This document shows positions 7,675 to 54,128 of a stretch of DNA of 64,000 nucleotides, piece after piece. The DNA lies in contig CM000153.2 in the NCBI GenBank assembly GCA_000004695.1, positions 2,432,001 through 2,496,000 of the forward strand, written 5' to 3'. A model generated the notes under the pieces. That model worked only from the letters and a program-made list of their open reading frames with translations, was not told where the DNA came from and searched no databases. Origin of the DNA: Dictyostelium discoideum. Its lineage: Eukaryota. Position 1 is the first letter of the stretch, and every line of letters begins with the position of its first letter. The translations under genes were made by a program, and so were the position numbers.

Positions 7675-9717
7675 GGTGTGTTGTGAAAATAAATGAAAAA
7701 GATAATAATGAATGAAAAAAAAAATAAATAAATAAATAAATAAAAAATAAAATAAAAAAAAAAAAAAAAAACTGTGTGTGAAATTAATTAGATTATTTTT
7801 TTATTTTATTTTTATTATTTTTTTTTTTATAAATAAATTTTAATATAAAAAAAAAAAATAATAATAATAATATCTAAAAGAGTTTTTTTAATTTGATATT
7901 ATTTATTTATTATTTATTTATTTATAAAAAATAAATTATAGTGGAAAAAAAAAGGTCTGTTTTTTTTTTTTTTTTTTTTTTTTTTCTTACTATTTTTTTT
8001 TTAAATTTTTAGGGCAATTTAAATTTTAATTTATTTTTATTTTAATTTTTTTTTAAATTTTAATTTTTTTTTTTAATTTTTTTTTTTAATTTTTTTAAGT
8101 TTTTTTTCTCAAACAATGACAACCCAAGGATTTATTTTAATGTTAATCATGATGGAAGAATTAAATTAAACAAGAAATATTTCTTAGTAATGAATACACC
8201 AAACTTGGTAAGATGTTTGAAAATAAAACCTAAAAAAAAAAAAAAATCTAAAAAAAAAGATCTATTAATAAAAAATCTTAAAAAATAATCTTTTTACTCG
8301 AAAAAATAAAAATAATTTACATATTTCAATATTGGTTAACACAATGGTATATATATATCTAGAAATTAAATTGAATATATAATTAAAAAAAAAAAAATAA
8401 AAAAAAAAAAAAATAAAATAAAATAAAATAAAAAAATAAATAAATAATAAAATAAAATTAATTAAGTATTTTTTTAAAACTTCAATTATTTTAATTTTTA
8501 AAATGTCTTTTTTTCATGGCCAATTTTGTTTAATAATTTTTAATATTAAATTGTAGTTTTAAGTAATTAAACAATAATTTTTTTTTTTGTTTTTTTTTTT
8601 TCCCTTAAATTCCAATGATACCATTTTTAAAATTAAAATTGGTGGTTGTGGTTATTGGGGGGAGAATTAAGAAATTAGCAATAAACAAGATTACTTGTTT
8701 ATTATTAAATCGCAATCAATTAATAATAACTTGCCTTTTCTTATTAGATACGATTATAATATGTTTAAAAATTCAAAACTTTTTAATTTTAAATTTAATT
8801 TTTTTTGACTAGAGATTTCTTGTAAAAGATAAATTCTTATTATGAAAATCTCTATTAATGTACTCAATATTATGAAATTTAATTTAACATTACAATTTAT
8901 TATTAAAAAAAAATAAAAAAATAAAAATAAAATAATTTTAAAAAATAAAAATAATTTAAAAGATTATAGTAATTTTTATTTTTTTAAATTTAATATGAAG
9001 TTCGATTTGATTTGATTTGGTTTTTTTATTTTAATATATTATTTTTATTATTTTTATTATTTTTTTATTATTTTTTTTTTATTTATTTTTTTTTTTTCAA
9101 TGAAATGAATCTTAAAATATTAATTTTAAAAATAATTATTATTGTTATTGATAATATTATATATAATTATATAAATATATATATATTTTAACCTTCATCA
9201 ATATCCAACCATTAACGGAAAGACACAGACCTTTCTTAAAATTTTATAACTTTCCTTCTTCGTTAAAGGAAAAAAAAAAATTTAATTTTTTTGTTTTTTT
9301 TTAATTTTTTTTTTTTTTTTTTTATTCCAATTTTGATATTCTATTTTTAATTTTATCAAAAAATAAAATTATATTAGCAAATAATAAAAATAATAATAAA
9401 AAAAAAAAAAAAAAAAAAAAAAGATAAAATTTAAAAAAAATGGGGGTTGGAAAAAATTAGGAAAAAAACCAATTGGGATGTTTTTGAGATAGAAATTTTT
9501 GTAAATCTAGTTTTGATTCTTTTATCTCGATAATATGAGATTATCATCATTGAAAAATATTTTATTGGAATATTAAAAACATAGAGTAACACAAACGGAA
9601 TCATGTATATTTTTCTTTTTTTGTTTTATTTGTGTATATTTATATAATTTTTTTAATTTTTTTAATTTTTTTTTATTTTTTTTTATTTTTTATTTTTGAC
9701 AAAATTGGTTGATACTC

Positions 9718-9790
9718 TCACACACACAATAATTAACCACACTCCCATCCCACACACCCCACTCCCCCGCTCACCAAAATTACCAAACAT
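9718..9790. promoter_or_regulatory. CA-/C-rich element (CACACAC…CCCACACACCCCACTCCCCCGCTCACC) in an otherwise more than 85% AT spacer, about 450 bp upstream of the psi-family gene
   Basis: A compositional outlier. It resembles the CA-rich elements (CAEs) described in Dictyostelium post-aggregative/prespore promoters. Confidence 0.35.
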
Positions 9791-9865
9791 CAACATATAA
9801 AACATGTGTGAGTTAGTTGGATGTGTTTATTTTTATTTCAAAAAAAAAAAAAAACAAAATTAAAA

Positions 9866-9896
<31 letters not shown>

Positions 9897-10204
9897 AAAA
9901 CAAAAAAAAAAAAAAAAAAAAAAAAGAAAAGAAAGGAAAAAACAACCATTTATTAATTTTTGTATGATTATTATAATTCAAATTAAAAATATATTATATA
10001 AATATATATAAATATATATTAAATAAAAATAATAATAAAATAAATTTAATATAATAAAAAATTTTTTTGAGAAAAAAAAAAAATAAAAAAAAAAAAAAAA
10101 AAAAAAAAACCAAAAAAAAACAAAAAAAAAAAACCAATAAAAAAAAAATAAAAAACAATAAACAAAATTATATTTATTAAATAATTATAATCAATACAAA
10201 TAAA

Positions 10205-37558: not shown

Positions 37559-39892
<2,334 letters not shown>

Positions 39893-41807: not shown

Positions 41808-42450
41808 TTATATATATTTACATTTTTCAATCTTTTTTAAACTTTCTTCCATTGTATTCATTTTTGAAGTAATATCTTTATTTAAATGACATTTTTTGAA
41901 ACCACTACTCATTGACCTAATGAAATCACAAATTTTAAAACATTCATCGTATTTACCAACAGTGACACAACCAGTTGAATAACGCATAAGTTCACCAGAT
42001 AAATCACAAATACCCAATGCATAATCATCGATAGAGATATTGAATTGACCTAAACTATCTAAATTCAATGCTTCTTTGATTGGTATTAATATTGAATCCA
42101 ATGGTATTAAAGCACCAAACTCTATATAATATTGAAATGAAACTGCTTCAATATATTCTTGAACACCATTTGTAAATGCTTTTTGAAATTTCCAATATTC
42201 TTGTTGATCCAATTCCTTTATAATATTACCAAATAAATTGAAAATTGGTTGAAGATTTTGTTTACTTTGTTTTAATATCTCTTGTTTATCCTCCCATACT
42301 GCACGTTGTAATAATGAAATTACTCTTTTACTTGCAATCGTTATATCTCTACTATTTTTTACAATTCTTTCTCTTCTATCATTCTAAAAAAATAAAATTA
42401 AATAAAATAAAATAATAAAAAGTTAGTGAAAATCTAAGTTTGAATTAGAT

Positions 42451-42527
<77 letters not shown>

Positions 42528-42572
42528 GATTATTACATCTTCATCTAATTTTTTACTAAATGATGAAAACAT
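41808..42572 (-). CDS. tsnax: Translin-associated protein X (TRAX) (2 exons: 42537..42572, 41808..42383; about 203 aa)
   Basis: Exon 1 MFSSFSKKLDED + GTAATA donor. Exon 2 …RDITIASKRVISLLQRA…GVQEYIEAVSFQYYI…DDYALGICDLSGELMRY… matches TRAX (SRDITVESKRTIFLL; GLQEYVEAVSFQHFI; DYLLGVADLTGELMR). The listed Met at 42212 is an internal TTG. The symbol is by orthology only. Confidence 0.75.
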
Positions 42573-43079
42573 TGATTTAATTTTTGGTTCATTAAATATT
42601 GATTCTTTTTCATTATTTTCATTTTTATTATTTTCATTTTTATTATAAATGTTATTTCGATTATTATTGTAGTTTGATCTAAATCTTTTCTCTATTATTA
42701 TTATTATAAATATTTTAGTTTGTTTGTACTTATATTAATAAAATAATAATAGTAATTAACTATAAAAACATACCCTCTCCTTTTTTTAAAGGTTGTTGGT
42801 CATCTCTTTTGTTATTAACATTTGTTGACATTGTTTTTTTTTTTGCAATATTTTTTTTTTTTTTTTTTTTTTTCCCATTTCGCTTTTTTTTTTTTTTTTT
42901 TTTTTTTAAATTATTTTTTTTTTTTTCAATTTTTTTTTTTTTTTTTTTTTTTAACACAAAATTTCCAAATAAATAATTTTCTATAATTAGAATTTTTTAA
43001 CATATTAATGGTATTTTATTTAACTTTGTTTATTTAATAAAAAAAAAAAACTAAAAAAAAATTGTTTTTTTCCAAATTC

Positions 43080-43087
43080 TCCCATAA
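43080..43087 (+). promoter_or_regulatory. DUSE-like motif TCCCATAA ((A/T)CCCA(C/T)AA) 59-66 nt upstream of the tRNA-Sec gene
   Basis: An exact match to the Dictyostelium upstream sequence element consensus at the characteristic distance (about 60 nt) from an ncRNA gene start. It is the only occurrence of the motif in the window. Confidence 0.55.
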
Positions 43088-43145
43088 CTTTTTTTTTAAA
43101 TTTTTTTTTTTTTTTTAAATTAGGAATTTAAAAAATTATTTATTT

Positions 43146-43233
43146 GCGTGTTTGATCGCTATCTGGGGATGCGTGTGGACTTCAAATCCATAGCTCGATA
43201 ACTCGAGAGTTGTTCGATTCAACCTGACGCGCG
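43146..43233 (+). tRNA. tRNA-Sec: Selenocysteine tRNA (tRNA-Sec, anticodon TCA), 88 nt, 9/4 acceptor/T-stem architecture
   Basis: It is the GC-richest 90 nt of the window. The anticodon arm is GTGGA-CTTCAAA-TCCAT (U33, anticodon UCA, A37). There is a long variable arm. T arm GTTG-TTCGATT-CAAC (4 bp). Acceptor GCGTGTTTG / CTGACGCGC (9 bp, 2 G-U, 1 mismatch) + G73 discriminator. A T-rich stretch follows downstream. Blocks CTTCAAA…AGCT…AGAGTTGTTCGATTCAACC resemble vertebrate tRNA-Sec (…GGCTTCAAACC…AGAGTGGTTCAATTCCACC). Confidence 0.75.
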
Positions 43234-43440
43234 TTTATTGTTTTAAAAAAAAAAAAAAAAGAAAAAAATAAAAAGATATCAAAAATTCTATCTGTAATCC
43301 CAAGAAAGAAAAAGATACAGATAATTGATCACTCTAAATAATAATCATATTAATTAAATATTAATAAATAAATAAATAAAAAAAAATAAATTAATATATT
43401 AAACAATTTAAAAAAATAAAATAAAAATAAAATAACTAAA

Positions 43441-43471
<31 letters not shown>

Positions 43472-43499
43472 AAAACTAATGGTTTTTATTATTTTATTT

Positions 43500-45179
<1,680 letters not shown>

Positions 45180-45292
45180 TTTACTAAAATAATTATATAT
45201 ATATACATATATATATATATTTTTTGTTATTGCACACTAGTAAATAATCATTTTTTTTTTTTTTTTTTTTTTTATGACCCTTGGTCACTTAC

Positions 45293-45327
<35 letters not shown>

Positions 45328-45532
45328 AAAAACAAAATTAAGAACTTAAAAAATTAAAAAATCTCAAAAAAATAAAAAAATTTATATTTTAAAAAGTATT
45401 TACGTTTTTTTTTATTTTTGTTATTTTAATATATATCTTATTATTATTTAAGAAGTGAAATAAATTTTATTCCCTCTAAAAATTTTTTTTTTTTTTTTTT
45501 TTTTTTTTCCCACAAAAAATTAAATAATAATT

Positions 45533-45895
45533 TTATTCATTTTTACTGCCATTTGGATATTTTCTTTCACCATATGCTGATATATAGTTTATATCATAGT
45601 CTTTTGATTTAATAATTTGTTTTAATTGTTCAATTTCTTTTAATTTTTCTTTAAGGATTGAAACTACCAAGTTACTGGAGATATGGTAATCACCATTTTC
45701 TAAACCATCCAATTGTGAGGGATGAGTAATATTTTTATATGCATTTGGTTCTTCTAATGGAGTATTTGATAACCAAGTTTCTTTATTATCAAATTCAACA
45801 GAACATAAATTTTTATTTTTTAATGCATCATTTAATTGATTTGTTGTTTCAATTCTAATTTTTAAATTTTTTTTTATATAATTTAAAATATCCAT
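45533..45895 (-). CDS. Small protein (120 aa) paralogous to the N-terminal domain of the 43500..45179 gene
   Basis: The likely true start is MDILNYIKKNL… at 45895 (the listed ORF begins earlier in poly-K/F from AT-rich sequence). It shares …HPSQL…ILKEKLKEI… with the neighbouring gene (…NHPSQLKKYNF…ILSEKLEDI…). Confidence 0.45.
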   Translation of the reverse strand: MDILNYIKKNLKIRIETTNQLNDALKNKNLCSVEFDNKETWLSNTPLEEPNAYKNITHPSQLDGLENGDYHISSNLVVSILKEKLKEIEQLKQIIKSKDYDINYISAYGERKYPNGSKNE

Positions 45896-45906
45896 ATTTT
45901 TTTTTC

Positions 45907-45942
<36 letters not shown>

Positions 45943-46050
45943 GTAATAAAAAAATAAATGAACTAAAATAAATAAATAAATAAATATAAAAATAAAAAAA
46001 AAACAATAGTTCAAAAATTGATTTGGCAAAGATGAAAAATAAAAATAAAA

Positions 46051-46084
<34 letters not shown>

Positions 46085-46885
46085 AAATACAGATTTAACA
46101 CAAATATTGTGTTTTTTTTTTTTATTATTTTTAATCCAAAATTAGTGTGTTTTTATTTTTATTTTTATTTTTTTATACATAATTTAAAATTTTAAGTCAA
46201 GTCTTGAAAAAATGGGTGTTATTATAATAATAATTTCAAATACATTTTTGTAAAAATAGATTCTCATAGATGTAGTGAAGTTATATAATTAAAAGAAAAA
46301 AAAAAAAAAAAAAATTATCTCATTTTTTAATTTTCAAATTTTTTTAAACTACTATTTTTTTTTTTTTTTTTAATTAATATTATTATTTTAATAAAATAAC
46401 CATTATTATTTATTATTTTTAGGATGTTTTTAAAATAATATTAATTTATTAAAATTATAATTTTTTTTTTTTTTTTTTATCCATTACAATTTTCAATAGG
46501 AAATTTCAATTTTTTTTATTTTTTTTTATTTTTTTTTTTTCTCCAAGTTCCAAAAATTCGAAATCGGTGATAAAAATAGGACAATGTTGAAAAAACGATA
46601 ATTTTTTTTATTTTTGTAACTTGGTAACCCACCCAACACACAACAAATAAAATAAAAAAAATATAAAAAAATAAAAAAAATAAAAAAAATAAAAAAAAAA
46701 CAATAATACCACAACAAAATTTAAAAAAAAAACAATAATAAAAAAAACAACAACAAAAATAAAATAAAATAAAAATTAATTAAAAATAATAATTACAATA
46801 TTGTAATTATTATTTTTACAGATTGCTTCCAAAAAAAAAATAAAAATAAAAATAAAAAAAAAAATAAAATAAAATTAAATAAAAA

Positions 46886-46934
<49 letters not shown>

Positions 46935-47164
46935 TCTACCATAATGAAAATATTATTGTTTTATTAATTTTTAATTTTACCATTTTAAATAAAATTAAAT
47001 AAAATTAATTTTTATTTATAATTTGAATAAAATTAATTTTTATTTATAATTTAAATAAATCTTTAAAAAATATAATTTTGGAATTAAATAAAAAAAAAAA
47101 ATCTAAAAAATAAAAAATTTTGTTTAGAAAAAATAAAAAAAAAAATTAAAAAAAAAAAAATAAA

Positions 47165-48976
<1,812 letters not shown>

Positions 48977-49016
48977 TTTAACAAATAAAAAAATATATAT
49001 ATTGTAAAGAAATTAA

Positions 49017-50785
<1,769 letters not shown>

Positions 50786-51004
50786 TCCAATTGATTTTTT
50801 TTTTTTTTATTGAAATTTTTATTTTTCACTTTTTTTTTTTATTTTTTTAATTTTTTTTTTTTTTTTTAATTAATAATGTTAAAAAAAAAAAAAAAAAAGG
50901 TTGTAATGTTGTTACTTTTAAGTAAATTTTTTGAGCGTTGTCATGTTTTTTAGTTTCTAAAACCTCATTTATTGAAACTCGAATGATTTTTTTTTTTTAA
51001 AAAA

Positions 51005-51095
51005 ATGGACCTTGAGGGGATCGATCCCTCCCTGCCAGTTTGCGGAACTAGAATGCAACCTATACATCAAAGGCCCGTTGGGACATGAGCTGCCT
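51005..51095. other. Isolated about 90-nt GC-rich island containing the 12-bp palindrome GGGATCGATCCC; unexplained
   Basis: ggaccttgaggggatcgatccctccctgccagtttgcggaactagaatgcaacctatacatcaaaggcccgttgggacatgagctgcc. Its size and GC content are like a small RNA gene. I could not fold it as a canonical tRNA on either strand, and there is no DUSE motif nearby. Confidence 0.2.
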
Positions 51096-51194
51096 TAAGA
51101 AAAATTTTAAATTTAATAGACATAATTTTAATTAAAAGAATATATAAATAAATGTTTTATTTATTTTTTATTATTGTTAACAATTTTTCTATTT

Positions 51195-51584
51195 TTAATT
51201 TTTAATTTTAAATTTTTCTATTTTTCTATTTTTATTTTTTAAATTTTTCTTGATATGACTAAAATATTCTTTATAAAATTGTTCAAGTTTTAATATCAAT
51301 TGTTCCCTTTCTATTTTCAATTGTTCCCTTTCTATTTTCAATTGTTCCCTTTCTATTTTCAATTGTTCCCTTTCTCTTTTCAATTGTTCCCTTTCTCTTT
51401 TCAATTGTTCAATTATTAATTCCAATTGATCGTTTTCTTGTTCCAATTGTTGCATTTCTTGTTCCAATATTTCCGGTATGTGATTTGAGTAAGTAACTAC
51501 TACTGTATTATTTGTAATATCTATTGTATTTTCAGCAAGGAAAAACAATATAATGAAATCTAAAATATAAAAAAAAAATTTCAA
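51195..51584 (-). CDS. Small protein (129 aa) with N-terminal hydrophobic signal/anchor and a heptad coiled-coil made of (EREQLKI)n repeats
   Basis: ATG-initiated. 24-nt tandem repeat caattgttccctttctattttc ×5 at 51298-51420. Unknown function. Confidence 0.4.
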   Translation of the reverse strand: MKFFFYILDFIILFFLAENTIDITNNTVVVTYSNHIPEILEQEMQQLEQENDQLELIIEQLKREREQLKREREQLKIEREQLKIEREQLKIEREQLILKLEQFYKEYFSHIKKNLKNKNRKIEKFKIKN

Positions 51585-51811
51585 ACTATTAAAATATTTT
51601 TACCCCTTTTATTTTTTATTTTTTATTTTTTTTTTTTTAAATTTTAAATTAATAAATTTAGTAATATCCATTTATATAGTAAATTTTAATAAAGGGTTTT
51701 TTAATTGAAACAGTTGTTTAAAAAGAAAAAATATTATAATAAAAAATATAATAGGAAAATATTAAAAAGAAATACATTTTTATTAATAAGAAATTAGTTT
51801 TATTTATTTTA

Positions 51812-51845
<34 letters not shown>

Positions 51846-51988
51846 AAATACTTTTTATTAATAAGGAATTTGTTTTTTTTTTTAAAATGATATTTCAAAA
51901 ACATAGTTTAAATTTATAAATAAAAATGGGATATAAAAAAATAATTTATTATTTTATTCCATTAATTATTTTAAAAAAAAAAAAAAAG

Positions 51989-54128
51989 ATGAAACAACTC
52001 TTTTTATTTATTTATTTAATATTTGTTTATTTAATTAATACTTCATTTTGTCAAGTTTATCCAAGTGGAGAAATTAAAGATATTCAAGGAAACTGTTTAA
52101 CTTCTCCAAATAATGTGGGTGAAATAATCACAATTGAAAATTGTTTTGATTCTCAATCAACAAATAAGTCACAACAACAATGGATATTCTCATTAGGTAA
52201 TAAAAACGTACCAACTCTTCAATCATTAAATGGATTATGTGCTGAAATTTCAAATAATAATTTAATTACAATTCAATGTACAACAATATATAAATCAAGT
52301 TCATTCTTATCAGTTCGTTATATTGAAGGTTCATTCATAATTAAATCAGTAATGTCTCAATCATGTTTACAAAGTCCTTTTAAAATTGGTGAATCACCTT
52401 TTTTCACATATAATTGTGATGCTGATGAAAATCAAAAGTTTTTTATTGATTTAACTTCTAAATCATTTTGTAAGTAAAAAAAATAGGAACTTTAAAATTT
52501 TTTTTTTTTTAAACATATTAATAATTTTTTATTATTATAAAAAACAGTACCTGTTTATAATCAAAAAAAAATTCCATTGACCATGTCATCAAATATAAAT
52601 TATTTCCTTGATAGTATGGAAGTAAATGCTCAATCTGGTGTATATAAAGGTTGGGAAAGAAAATTACCAGGTTTTTAGTAAAGTTTAATACTGATTGTAC
52701 TCTAACCATTTCTGATGATAATTCAGTTCTTTGGAAAAATGTTGATGAACCACCATCAGTTTGTAAACCTTCTGCTGTCTTAAAATTACATAATGATGGT
52801 AAATTATGTATATATAATCATGAAAATAATCCAGTTTCAAGTTGGTGCTCAGACTCTAAATCATTAGGTGGTCGTTATTACCATATGGTTCTTATGGAAA
52901 AAGTAAGTGAAAATAATAATTTTTTATTTTATTAATTTAAATTTAATTATAAACTTTAAAGTAAAAAAAATCAATTTATTTAATATTAATTACAATAATA
53001 TATATTAAGGATGGGGATTAGTTATTCAATCAGAAAATGGTGCAATGGTATGGGCAAAATGGGGTGAATCAATTTATCCAGATGCAAATTATAATTTAAT
53101 TCCTGGTAGCTACTTTGATGAAAATTATGGAATTAATACTAATAAATATATTACAAATGGAAGGTAAAGTATATTACATGTTCTAAGTTTAAATTTTCAT
53201 TAATTTTAAAAACAAAACTAATCATATTCTTTCATTTTTATTATTAAATTTTAAAAGAGATTTTTTATATTTTAATATAAAATATGGATTACAATATTTT
53301 ATTGGTAATCCAAATATGCAAGGAATACCTAATAGAGCTTGGAGTTCAATACCAGAACCAAGTTATGGTGAACGACCTGTTACATTAACATTATATATTA
53401 ATAATGATAATGTAACTATTCAAGGAAAAAAAATAATAGAAATAAAAACCCGAGACCTTACTGGATGGAAACACATTTTAATAGATGTTACATTATGGAA
53501 TACTCAAATACCATTGAAAGGTTGTAAATTCATTCATTTACCAATTTTAAATCAAAATGATTATGATAATTGGGGTTGGGTAATTAAAAATAAAGGTTTA
53601 AAGATTATATATGGTAATTTTAATTATCAACCTACAAAAATTAGCTCTTCAAATAATTTCTTAATTGGTAGTCCAACCAATCCATTAAATCCAACAAAAC
53701 AATTATATTCAGATATTTTAAAATTCGAATTACGTCCTGATGGTGTTTTAGAATTTAGAAATTTAATTACTGGTGAATTATTGTTCCCATACTCATATTC
53801 ATCTGTTTTAATACCAACTAGTGGTAATGGTACAAATCAATGTCCAAATAGAAAATATTTAGGTTATTGGGATAATGATAATAATTTAAGTATTAAAGTT
53901 GTTGGTTGTGAAAAGTATAGAGATACTTGTAATAAAACTGATTCAATCCAATGTAGAAGTAATCCACAGCTATGTAATGAAAATGATAATAACAAATGTT
54001 TTACTTATTTCACTTTCTTTCCAAATTGTTACCAATTTGGTCAAGCATCATTAGTAATTCAATATGGACTTCCTGAAATTATGTTTATTAGCTATGATAA
54101 TATTTTAGTTTCAAATTATTTGTATTAA
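51989..54128 (+). CDS. Secreted lectin-like protein: ricin-B/beta-trefoil-like N-domain (QxW) + bulb-type (B-)lectin domain + Cys-rich C-terminal domain; 4 exons (51989..52473, 52650..52902, 53010..53163, 53258..54128); the exon 2/3 junction is out of phase, so possibly a pseudogene or a sequence error
   Basis: Signal peptide MKQLFLFIYLIFVYLINTSFCQ. QQQWIF. B-lectin motifs TISDDNSVLW, KLHNDGKLCIYN…NPVSSW, (D)GDLVIQSENGAMVWA. Exons 1 to 2 (phase 2) and 3 to 4 (phase 2) are consistent. Exon 2 ends in phase 0 at a perfect GTAAGT, while exon 3 only reads in the conserved frame if it starts in phase 1. The exon sum is 1763 nt, which is 2 mod 3. Confidence 0.5.

Follow-up and report, generated by a model that had tools for sequence, protein, structure and literature searches.

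A conserved DUSE at snRNA-type spacing suggests an external promoter for the selenocysteine tRNA gene of Dictyostelium

The selenocysteine tRNA (tRNA-Sec) gene of Dictyostelium discoideum is preceded by an exact copy of the DUSE, at the distance published for the ncRNA genes that carry this element, and both the element and its spacing are conserved in five dictyostelid species. [quoted passage not shown] We also lean towards a more specific reading, in which tRNA-Sec in Dictyostelia would be expressed from the snRNA promoter system with the DUSE as its SNAPc-type proximal element.

To our knowledge, no eukaryotic tRNA other than tRNA-Sec is known to depart from the internal-promoter rule. According to Aeby et al, 2010 (PMC2943599), its transcription had been left unanalysed beyond vertebrates and trypanosomes, D. 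discoideum included. The DUSE has been described as a putative promoter element, ~60 nt from the start, for the spliceosomal snRNA genes and the Class I and Class II RNA genes of Dictyostelium (PMC3188802, PMC7919456); the evidence that Class I RNAs depend on it is correlative (PMC7919456). The tRNA and the DUSE are each known, and what appears to be new is their association, which adds a further lineage with an snRNA-type element at tRNA-Sec. Nothing in the searchable literature connected the tRNA with the DUSE; this search did not extend to Hinas 2006, Aspegren 2004, Hinas & Soderbom 2007 and Shrimali 2005, which may hold a prior mention.

Results

Identity and fold of the tRNA-Sec gene

The region analysed, called the window below, is a 64-kb stretch of chromosome 4 of D. 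discoideum AX4 with an overall GC content of 21%. Table 1 lists the features of the locus in window coordinates; negative positions are relative to the first base of the mature tRNA (+1).

Table 1. Features at and around the tRNA-Sec gene.
Feature	Position	Strand	Remarks
TRAX (DDB_G0284837; translin-associated protein X; three exons)	41808..42831	-	Pfam Translin 187 bits; context only
Extended conserved block TCTCCCATAACTTTTTTT	43078..43095	+	-68 to -51; 18 nt invariant in four Dictyostelium species
DUSE core TCCCATAA	43080..43087	+	-66 to -59; 58 nt before +1
TATA-like TAAATTA (tentative)	43116..43122	+	-30 to -24
tRNA-Sec (tRNA[Ser]Sec) gene	43146..43233	+	87 nt + discriminator G73 (43233); CCA not encoded
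Anticodon TCA (reads UGA)	43182..43184	+	same in all five species
B-box-like T arm TGTTCGATTCA	43211..43221	+	9/11 to consensus GGTTCGANTCC
T-rich tail TTTATTGTTTT, candidate Pol III terminator	43234..43244	+	T4 at 43241–43244

A preliminary description of this DNA, made from its letters alone, had recognized a 9/4 tRNA with anticodon TCA and a long variable arm, and this identification was borne out by a full-length covariance-model match and by covariation. Rfam model RF01852 (tRNA-Sec) matches 43146–43232 on the plus strand over model positions 1–91 of 91, with 64.2 bits (E = 9e-11; gathering score 47 bits). This was the sole Rfam match within the 64-kb window, and a permissive re-scan of 42000–52000 returned nothing credible besides it. 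The matched segment begins with GCGTGTTTG at its 5' end and closes with CTGACGCGC at its 3' end, followed by the G at 43233.

Helices were segmented by hand along the Rfam alignments, because MAFFT had placed an indel in the acceptor stem. The acceptor stem has 9 bp, comprising eight standard pairs and a U.U mismatch at pair 8 that is conserved between D. discoideum and Polysphondylium violaceum, and the T stem has 4 bp (4/4 paired), giving a 9/4 fold with 13 stacked base pairs. The D stem consists of six standard pairs with one bulged U and the 4-nt loop TGGG (two bulged nucleotides in P. violaceum), the anticodon stem of 6 bp, and the variable arm of a 5-bp stem with a 4-nt loop, in which 3/5 pairs are changed on both sides in P. 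violaceum. D. discoideum and P. violaceum both have standard pairing at 29 of the 30 positions, and 13 of these pairs carry compensatory double changes between the two species under the 9/4 fold. The 7-nt anticodon loop CTTCAAA (43180–43186) is unchanged across five species, and G73 follows the acceptor stem in each of them (5/5). A long variable arm and G73 are identity features for seryl-tRNA synthetase, and tRNA-Sec passes through serylation and conversion by PSTK and SepSecS before it decodes UGA with SECIS elements.

Two other approaches gave negative results. ARAGORN with bacterial settings called no tRNA in the window, which we treated as a limit of the tool on 9/4 tRNAs, and a single-sequence MFE fold gave a non-cloverleaf structure (z = -0.57), a result that is uninformative for tRNAs. 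Both are outweighed by the covariance-model and covariation evidence. The 87 nt of the gene are 51% GC against 10% in the 300-nt flanks, and this contrast (0.41) is the largest in the window. The gene had been called the sharpest GC island, which is correct for contrast but not for absolute GC content, since 51007–51093 reaches 55%.

[quoted passage not shown] A single tRNA-Sec gene has been reported for this species (PMC13063481), as have five selenoproteins, supported by 75Se labelling (PMC2375036). The tRNA[Ser]Sec was identified in 2005 by Shrimali et al (BBRC 329:147), as cited in PMC2375036 and bioRxiv 10.64898/2026.03.01.708701; it is the gene studied here, on AX4 chromosome 4 beside DDB_G0284837, with identical RNA. 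Our analysis leaves knowledge of the RNA itself unchanged.

Genomic setting and orthologous loci

The gene had been described as lying just downstream of TRAX, but the reverse is true. TRAX reads on the minus strand from its ATG at 42831 to its stop at 41808 (protein 100% identical to D. discoideum AX4 XP_638400), so that tRNA-Sec lies upstream of it, 315 nt from the start codon, and the two genes are divergent. The right-hand neighbour of tRNA-Sec is an ORF of 559 aa on the minus strand (43500–45179). Its tblastn matches were confined to the D. discoideum complex, and BLASTP against the neighbour in P. violaceum gave no match; this ORF is fast-evolving and could not be traced further.

TRAX was used as a handle for retrieving orthologous loci. 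Those of D. purpureum, P. violaceum, Tieghemostelium lacteum and Acytostelium subglobosum were obtained by homology search, and those of D. firmibasis, D. dimigraforme and D. citrinum via the D. discoideum TRAX cluster. A further JGI contig, cDNA-like and with only 38 nt upstream of TRAX, was set aside. A tRNA-Sec gene was found beside TRAX in P. violaceum (54.8 bits with the Rfam model), D. firmibasis (61.3 bits), D. dimigraforme (65 bits) and D. citrinum (63 bits), and the divergent layout is kept in all five species, including P. violaceum, whose TRAX is 66% identical. In D. purpureum, T. lacteum and A. subglobosum no tRNA-Sec was found at the TRAX locus, even at E<=1; TRAX has other neighbours there, and synteny is broken. 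The depth of the five-species comparison is therefore that of the D. discoideum complex plus P. violaceum, with the tRNA-Sec genes of D. purpureum and of Groups 1–3 outside it.

Position and spacing of the DUSE

An exact (A/T)CCCA(C/T)AA motif had been noted ~60 nt upstream of the tRNA, at the spacing used by Dictyostelium ncRNA promoters, and both points were confirmed. The motif is TCCCATAA at 43080–43087, with a gap of 58 nt to the gene. D. firmibasis, D. dimigraforme and D. citrinum carry the same 8-mer at the same offset, making the gap 58 nt in all four Dictyostelium species, and in P. violaceum the motif takes the form ACCCATAA with a gap of 59 nt. This range of 58–59 nt falls inside the 56–64 nt, measured from the end of the DUSE to the start of the RNA, that a published classifier of Class I RNAs uses (PMC7919456, supplementary file 44). 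The MEME sites of Class I RNA genes that the output of the same paper lists for species other than D. discoideum lie mostly at 56–61 nt. In dictyostelid Groups 1 and 4 the DUSE would be expected to read WCCCAYAA, whereas Groups 2 and 3 would be expected to carry AACCATAA.

Across the window, [AT]CCCA[CT]AA has four matches on both strands, where shuffles lead one to expect ~10. The motif is not enriched window-wide, so the argument has to come from where it lies and how it is conserved. Away from tRNA-Sec, nine matches in 342,278 strand-positions give a background rate of 2.6e-5, from which the chance of a match in the 9-position window 56–64 nt upstream is ~2e-4. The other three matches in the 64 kb look like chance occurrences. 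One, at 39193–39200 (minus strand), falls within an ORF of the opposite strand and another, at 43619–43626 (minus strand), within a coding ORF, neither being followed by an RNA-like island; the third, at 45508–45515 (plus strand), lies between two minus-strand ORFs with no GC-rich RNA-like sequence after it.

Conservation of the motif and its assignment to tRNA-Sec

The motif is embedded in the block TCTCCCATAACTTTTTTT. Over the 120 nt that precede the gene, no longer stretch is invariant among the four Dictyostelium species. Mean pairwise identity in these species is 0.96 over -70 to -53, as opposed to 0.46 distally and 0.63 proximally. In P. violaceum the upstream DNA cannot be aligned apart from the motif itself, which is the sole strict [AT]CCCA[CT]AA match in the 21 kb of that locus on either strand.

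Both tRNA-Sec and TRAX could in principle own an element placed between them. The distance from the motif to the TRAX ATG is 249, 538, 234, 259 and 179 nt across the five species. Given that this distance varies from 179 to 538 nt and that to the tRNA is fixed, the motif belongs to tRNA-Sec. Where TRAX occurs apart from tRNA-Sec, in D. purpureum, T. lacteum and A. subglobosum, the 1 kb preceding TRAX contains no strict motif. By this comparison, the motif travels with tRNA-Sec and not with TRAX.

We also scanned metagenomes. A dictyostelid-specific pattern gave 0 matches, and a looser scan gave 88 loci, none of them dictyostelid, of which ~50 have a eukaryote-type 9-bp acceptor, many in A+T-rich DNA. 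The loci served only as a negative control; the ~50 tRNA-Sec loci of eukaryote type showed no DUSE-like 8-mer in the ~100 nt upstream.

Other promoter-region and terminator features

A TATA-like TAAATTA is in register with ATAAATTA / ATTAATAA of the other three Dictyostelium species, its significance being impossible to judge because the DNA is ~90% A+T; P. violaceum has no evident counterpart at -30 to -24. A second conserved block of the activator-like (Staf/Oct) type was absent within -150 in the five-species alignment and within -120 in the four Dictyostelium species.

Inside the gene, the B box of D. discoideum, termed 'deficient' or deviant by Aeby et al, 2010 (PMC2943599), keeps the key residues, and that of P. 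violaceum, GGTTCGATTCC, agrees with the consensus at 11/11 positions. The best A-box match, TCGCTATCTGG, read directly from the sequence, begins at gene position 12 and not at position 8; the 9-bp acceptor and the 6-bp D stem put the canonical A box out of register. Downstream, runs of T4–T7 start 1–8 nt past G73 in 5/5 species, which is weak evidence for a terminator considering that such runs are common in A+T-rich DNA. No external B-box-like sequence was seen by eye at 43234–43400.

A model for transcription of tRNA-Sec

In the arrangement that we propose, the DUSE TCCCATAA, lying within TCTCCCATAACTTTTTTT, would recruit the factor used by the genes for spliceosomal snRNAs and Class I RNAs, presumably a SNAPc-like complex. 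The polymerase placed by this factor would most likely be Pol III; it would begin at, or a few nucleotides from, the first base of mature tRNA-Sec and stop in the T-run just past G73, and the B box in the T arm may add activity, as in Xenopus. We infer the requirement for the DUSE, the factor that binds it, the polymerase and the start site alike. The start is placed at or very near +1 on account of the exact DUSE spacing when counted from the mature 5' end, and Pol III is assigned solely because a T-run follows the gene. In vertebrate tRNA-Sec, the mature 5' end is the transcription start site.

The preliminary description had favoured an external promoter rather than internal A and B boxes. 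The conserved DUSE at 58–59 nt speaks for the external element; the exclusion of internal boxes was too strong, given a B box that is largely intact (9/11, and 11/11 in P. violaceum). A mixed promoter of the kind known from Xenopus is just as possible.

Alternative explanations

The DUSE might instead drive Pol II, as it does for U1, U2, U4 and U5, which would make tRNA-Sec a Pol II transcript in the manner of trypanosomes. The element is tied to both Pol II and Pol III genes (PMC7919456), Aeby et al, 2010 floated the idea for D. discoideum in view of its deviant B box (PMC2943599), and P. violaceum has no clear TATA-like element at -30. Against these points, the T4–T7 run that begins 1–8 nt past G73 in every species (5/5) fits Pol III termination, TAAATTA at -30 to -24 is aligned in four species, the key B-box residues have been retained, and outside trypanosomatids Pol III is the rule for tRNA-Sec (PMC2943599). 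We consider Pol II transcription unlikely. Ordinary transcription through TFIIIC and the internal boxes, with the upstream block serving something else such as the divergent TRAX promoter, would account for a B box that matches at 9/11 positions in D. discoideum and at all 11 in P. violaceum, and for a block that sits in an intergenic region common to tRNA-Sec and TRAX. It is harder to reconcile with an A-box region that is out of register (TCGCTATCTGG at position 12, not 8) and with a block that fits the DUSE consensus and spacing exactly, lying a fixed 58–59 nt from tRNA-Sec and 179–538 nt from the TRAX ATG; the TRAX loci without tRNA-Sec are also without a strict motif. In addition, tRNA-Sec is found outside nucleosome-free regions, unlike other functional tRNA genes. 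Taken together, these observations make a purely internal promoter quite improbable.

The motif might, finally, be nothing but a chance 8-mer in A+T-rich DNA, its conservation reflecting recent common ancestry. The ~10 matches per window expected from shuffles and the chance-like appearance of the other three matches in this window are what such an origin would predict. At the relevant position, however, a match is expected at only ~2e-4 per lineage for the nine positions allowed, and the flanks fall to 46% identity even between close species. P. violaceum, which is distant enough for TRAX to be 66% identical and for the upstream DNA to be unalignable, keeps the motif with its offset shifted by a single base. 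Coincidence is thus hardly credible, and an snRNA-type external promoter is the reading that we prefer.

Discussion

Relation to known promoters

The tRNA-Sec locus resembles the DUSE-bearing ncRNA genes in having the same 8-mer on the same strand, a gap within 56–64 nt and conservation across species (Hinas 2006; PMC3188802, PMC7919456). It differs from them in its product: none of the searchable papers counts tRNAs among the classes of RNA with a DUSE.

Type 3 Pol III promoters provide the closest general frame: in these, a TATA element at -30 specifies Pol III, and SNAPc, TBP and Brf2 are needed but TFIIIC is not. Brf2 has been reported only in vertebrates (PMC4671959). Vertebrate tRNA-Sec has a PSE at ~-55 to -70, a TATA element at -30 and a distal activator bound by Staf, with a retained B box and a non-functional A box (Carbon & Krol 1991 and Schuster 1995, summarised in PMC2943599). 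The Dictyostelium gene is similar in its snRNA-type element at ~-60, displaced A box, retained B box, T-run and implied start at the mature 5' end. The likeness between the PSE and the DUSE is one of role, the sequence of the DUSE appearing unrelated to the PSE consensus. The two systems also differ in the distal activator, of which none was found at the Dictyostelium locus within -150, and in the TATA element, which is uncertain here.

The T. brucei tRNA-Sec, which is transcribed by Pol II as part of a polycistron (PMC2943599), shares with the Dictyostelium gene a non-canonical mode of expression and a deviant B box. The trypanosome gene lies inside its polycistron without an upstream element, whereas the Dictyostelium gene has a discrete conserved upstream element and a T-run.

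Two snRNA elements from further afield share a short core with the DUSE. The plant U-snRNA USE (RTCCCACATCG) and the Drosophila PSEA both contain TCCCA and lie at ~-55 to -70 of snRNA genes. This shared core hints that the DUSE could be the SNAPc site of Amoebozoa.

Implications

If the proposed promoter is correct, this would be the first tRNA-Sec coupled to an snRNA-type external promoter outside animals, and the DUSE regulon would gain a tRNA. The hand-over of tRNA-Sec to the snRNA machinery would then be either ancestral to Amorphea (Amoebozoa and Opisthokonta) or repeated, and a repeated hand-over would represent a solution to the displacement of the A box that the 9/4 fold brings about. 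The proposed promoter would, moreover, resolve what Aeby et al, 2010 had left open, namely the way in which a D. discoideum gene with a deviant B box comes to be transcribed. For Amoebozoa, a conserved DUSE at canonical spacing offers a concrete hypothesis that can be tested by mutation. For new dictyostelid genomes, it suggests a simple annotation rule, namely an RF01852 match with a DUSE 56–64 nt upstream.

A further observation on this gene comes from chromatin data. In ATAC-seq profiles of D. discoideum, tRNA-Sec was reported, to the authors' surprise, to be alone among functional tRNA genes in lying outside nucleosome-free regions at all developmental stages, and the closed chromatin was read by the authors as repression (PMC13063481, 2026). 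This exception would also be compatible with a promoter built differently from those of other tRNA genes, and a DUSE promoter may be what sets tRNA-Sec apart in those profiles.

Genomic neighbourhood of the tRNA-Sec gene

The divergent arrangement of the selenocysteine tRNA gene (tRNA-Sec) and TRAX is kept from D. discoideum to P. violaceum. The pair is missing at the TRAX loci of D. purpureum (L001), T. lacteum (L003) and A. subglobosum (L004), in which TRAX lies at 10001+; D. purpureum is among these species even though it belongs to Group 4. In these three, tRNA-Sec has either been relocated or, less likely, been lost. Between TRAX and tRNA-Sec, upstream of the DUSE promoter motif, the intergenic sequence is filled with very long T homopolymers (up to ~30 nt). 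As such tracts may disturb read mapping, they may also affect the conclusion of an ATAC-seq study that places the tRNA-Sec gene in closed chromatin (PMC13063481). The right-hand neighbour is dominated by poly-Q and poly-N tracts, is without a Pfam domain and is conserved only in its C-terminal ~140 aa and only inside the D. discoideum complex (68–84% identity); the gene seems to evolve fast and to be lineage-restricted.

Features of the window around and beyond tRNA-Sec
Feature	Position	Strand	Description
C/CA-rich island	9707-9793		CACACACAATAATTAACCACACTCCCATCCCACACACCCCACTCCCCCGCTCACC; 47% GC; long T and A runs on its two sides
T tracts	42840-42955		TRAX/tRNA-Sec intergenic
559-aa ORF	43500-45179	-	right-hand neighbour, convergent
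DUSE-type 8-mer	45508-45515	+	TCCCACAA, perfect; between two minus-strand ORFs
Second sharp GC island	51005-51102		intergenic, ~95 nt; 55% GC vs 17% in flanks

Other candidate elements in the window

The second GC island has no Rfam match at E<=1, ARAGORN calls no tRNA in it, and DUSE is absent upstream on both strands. Its minus strand gives a loosely cloverleaf-like minimum free energy fold with a 7-bp closing stem and a T-arm-like GAGGG/ATCGATC/CCCTC, the stability of which is not above that of shuffles (z = -0.11). Possible identities for the island are a degenerate tRNA-like element, a small exon and an ncRNA missing from the annotation. The C/CA-rich island likewise has no Rfam match. 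The DUSE-type 8-mer, which is immediately preceded by a run of ~30 T, is probably a chance match, since no GC-rich or Class I-like RNA lies within ~60-120 nt after it.

Tandem tRNA genes in marine metagenomes

Four marine metagenome contigs (L014, L027, L032 and L040) carry a complete tRNA gene (GTCCTCGTGGCCTAATGGATAAGGCG...GGGTTCGAGTCCC...) that is followed, after only ~10-20 nt, by a tRNA-Sec of eukaryote type (GCGTGGATG...). This short spacing suggests a dicistronic tRNA/tRNA-Sec unit in some protist or alga, which, if true, would be a different route around a weak internal promoter.
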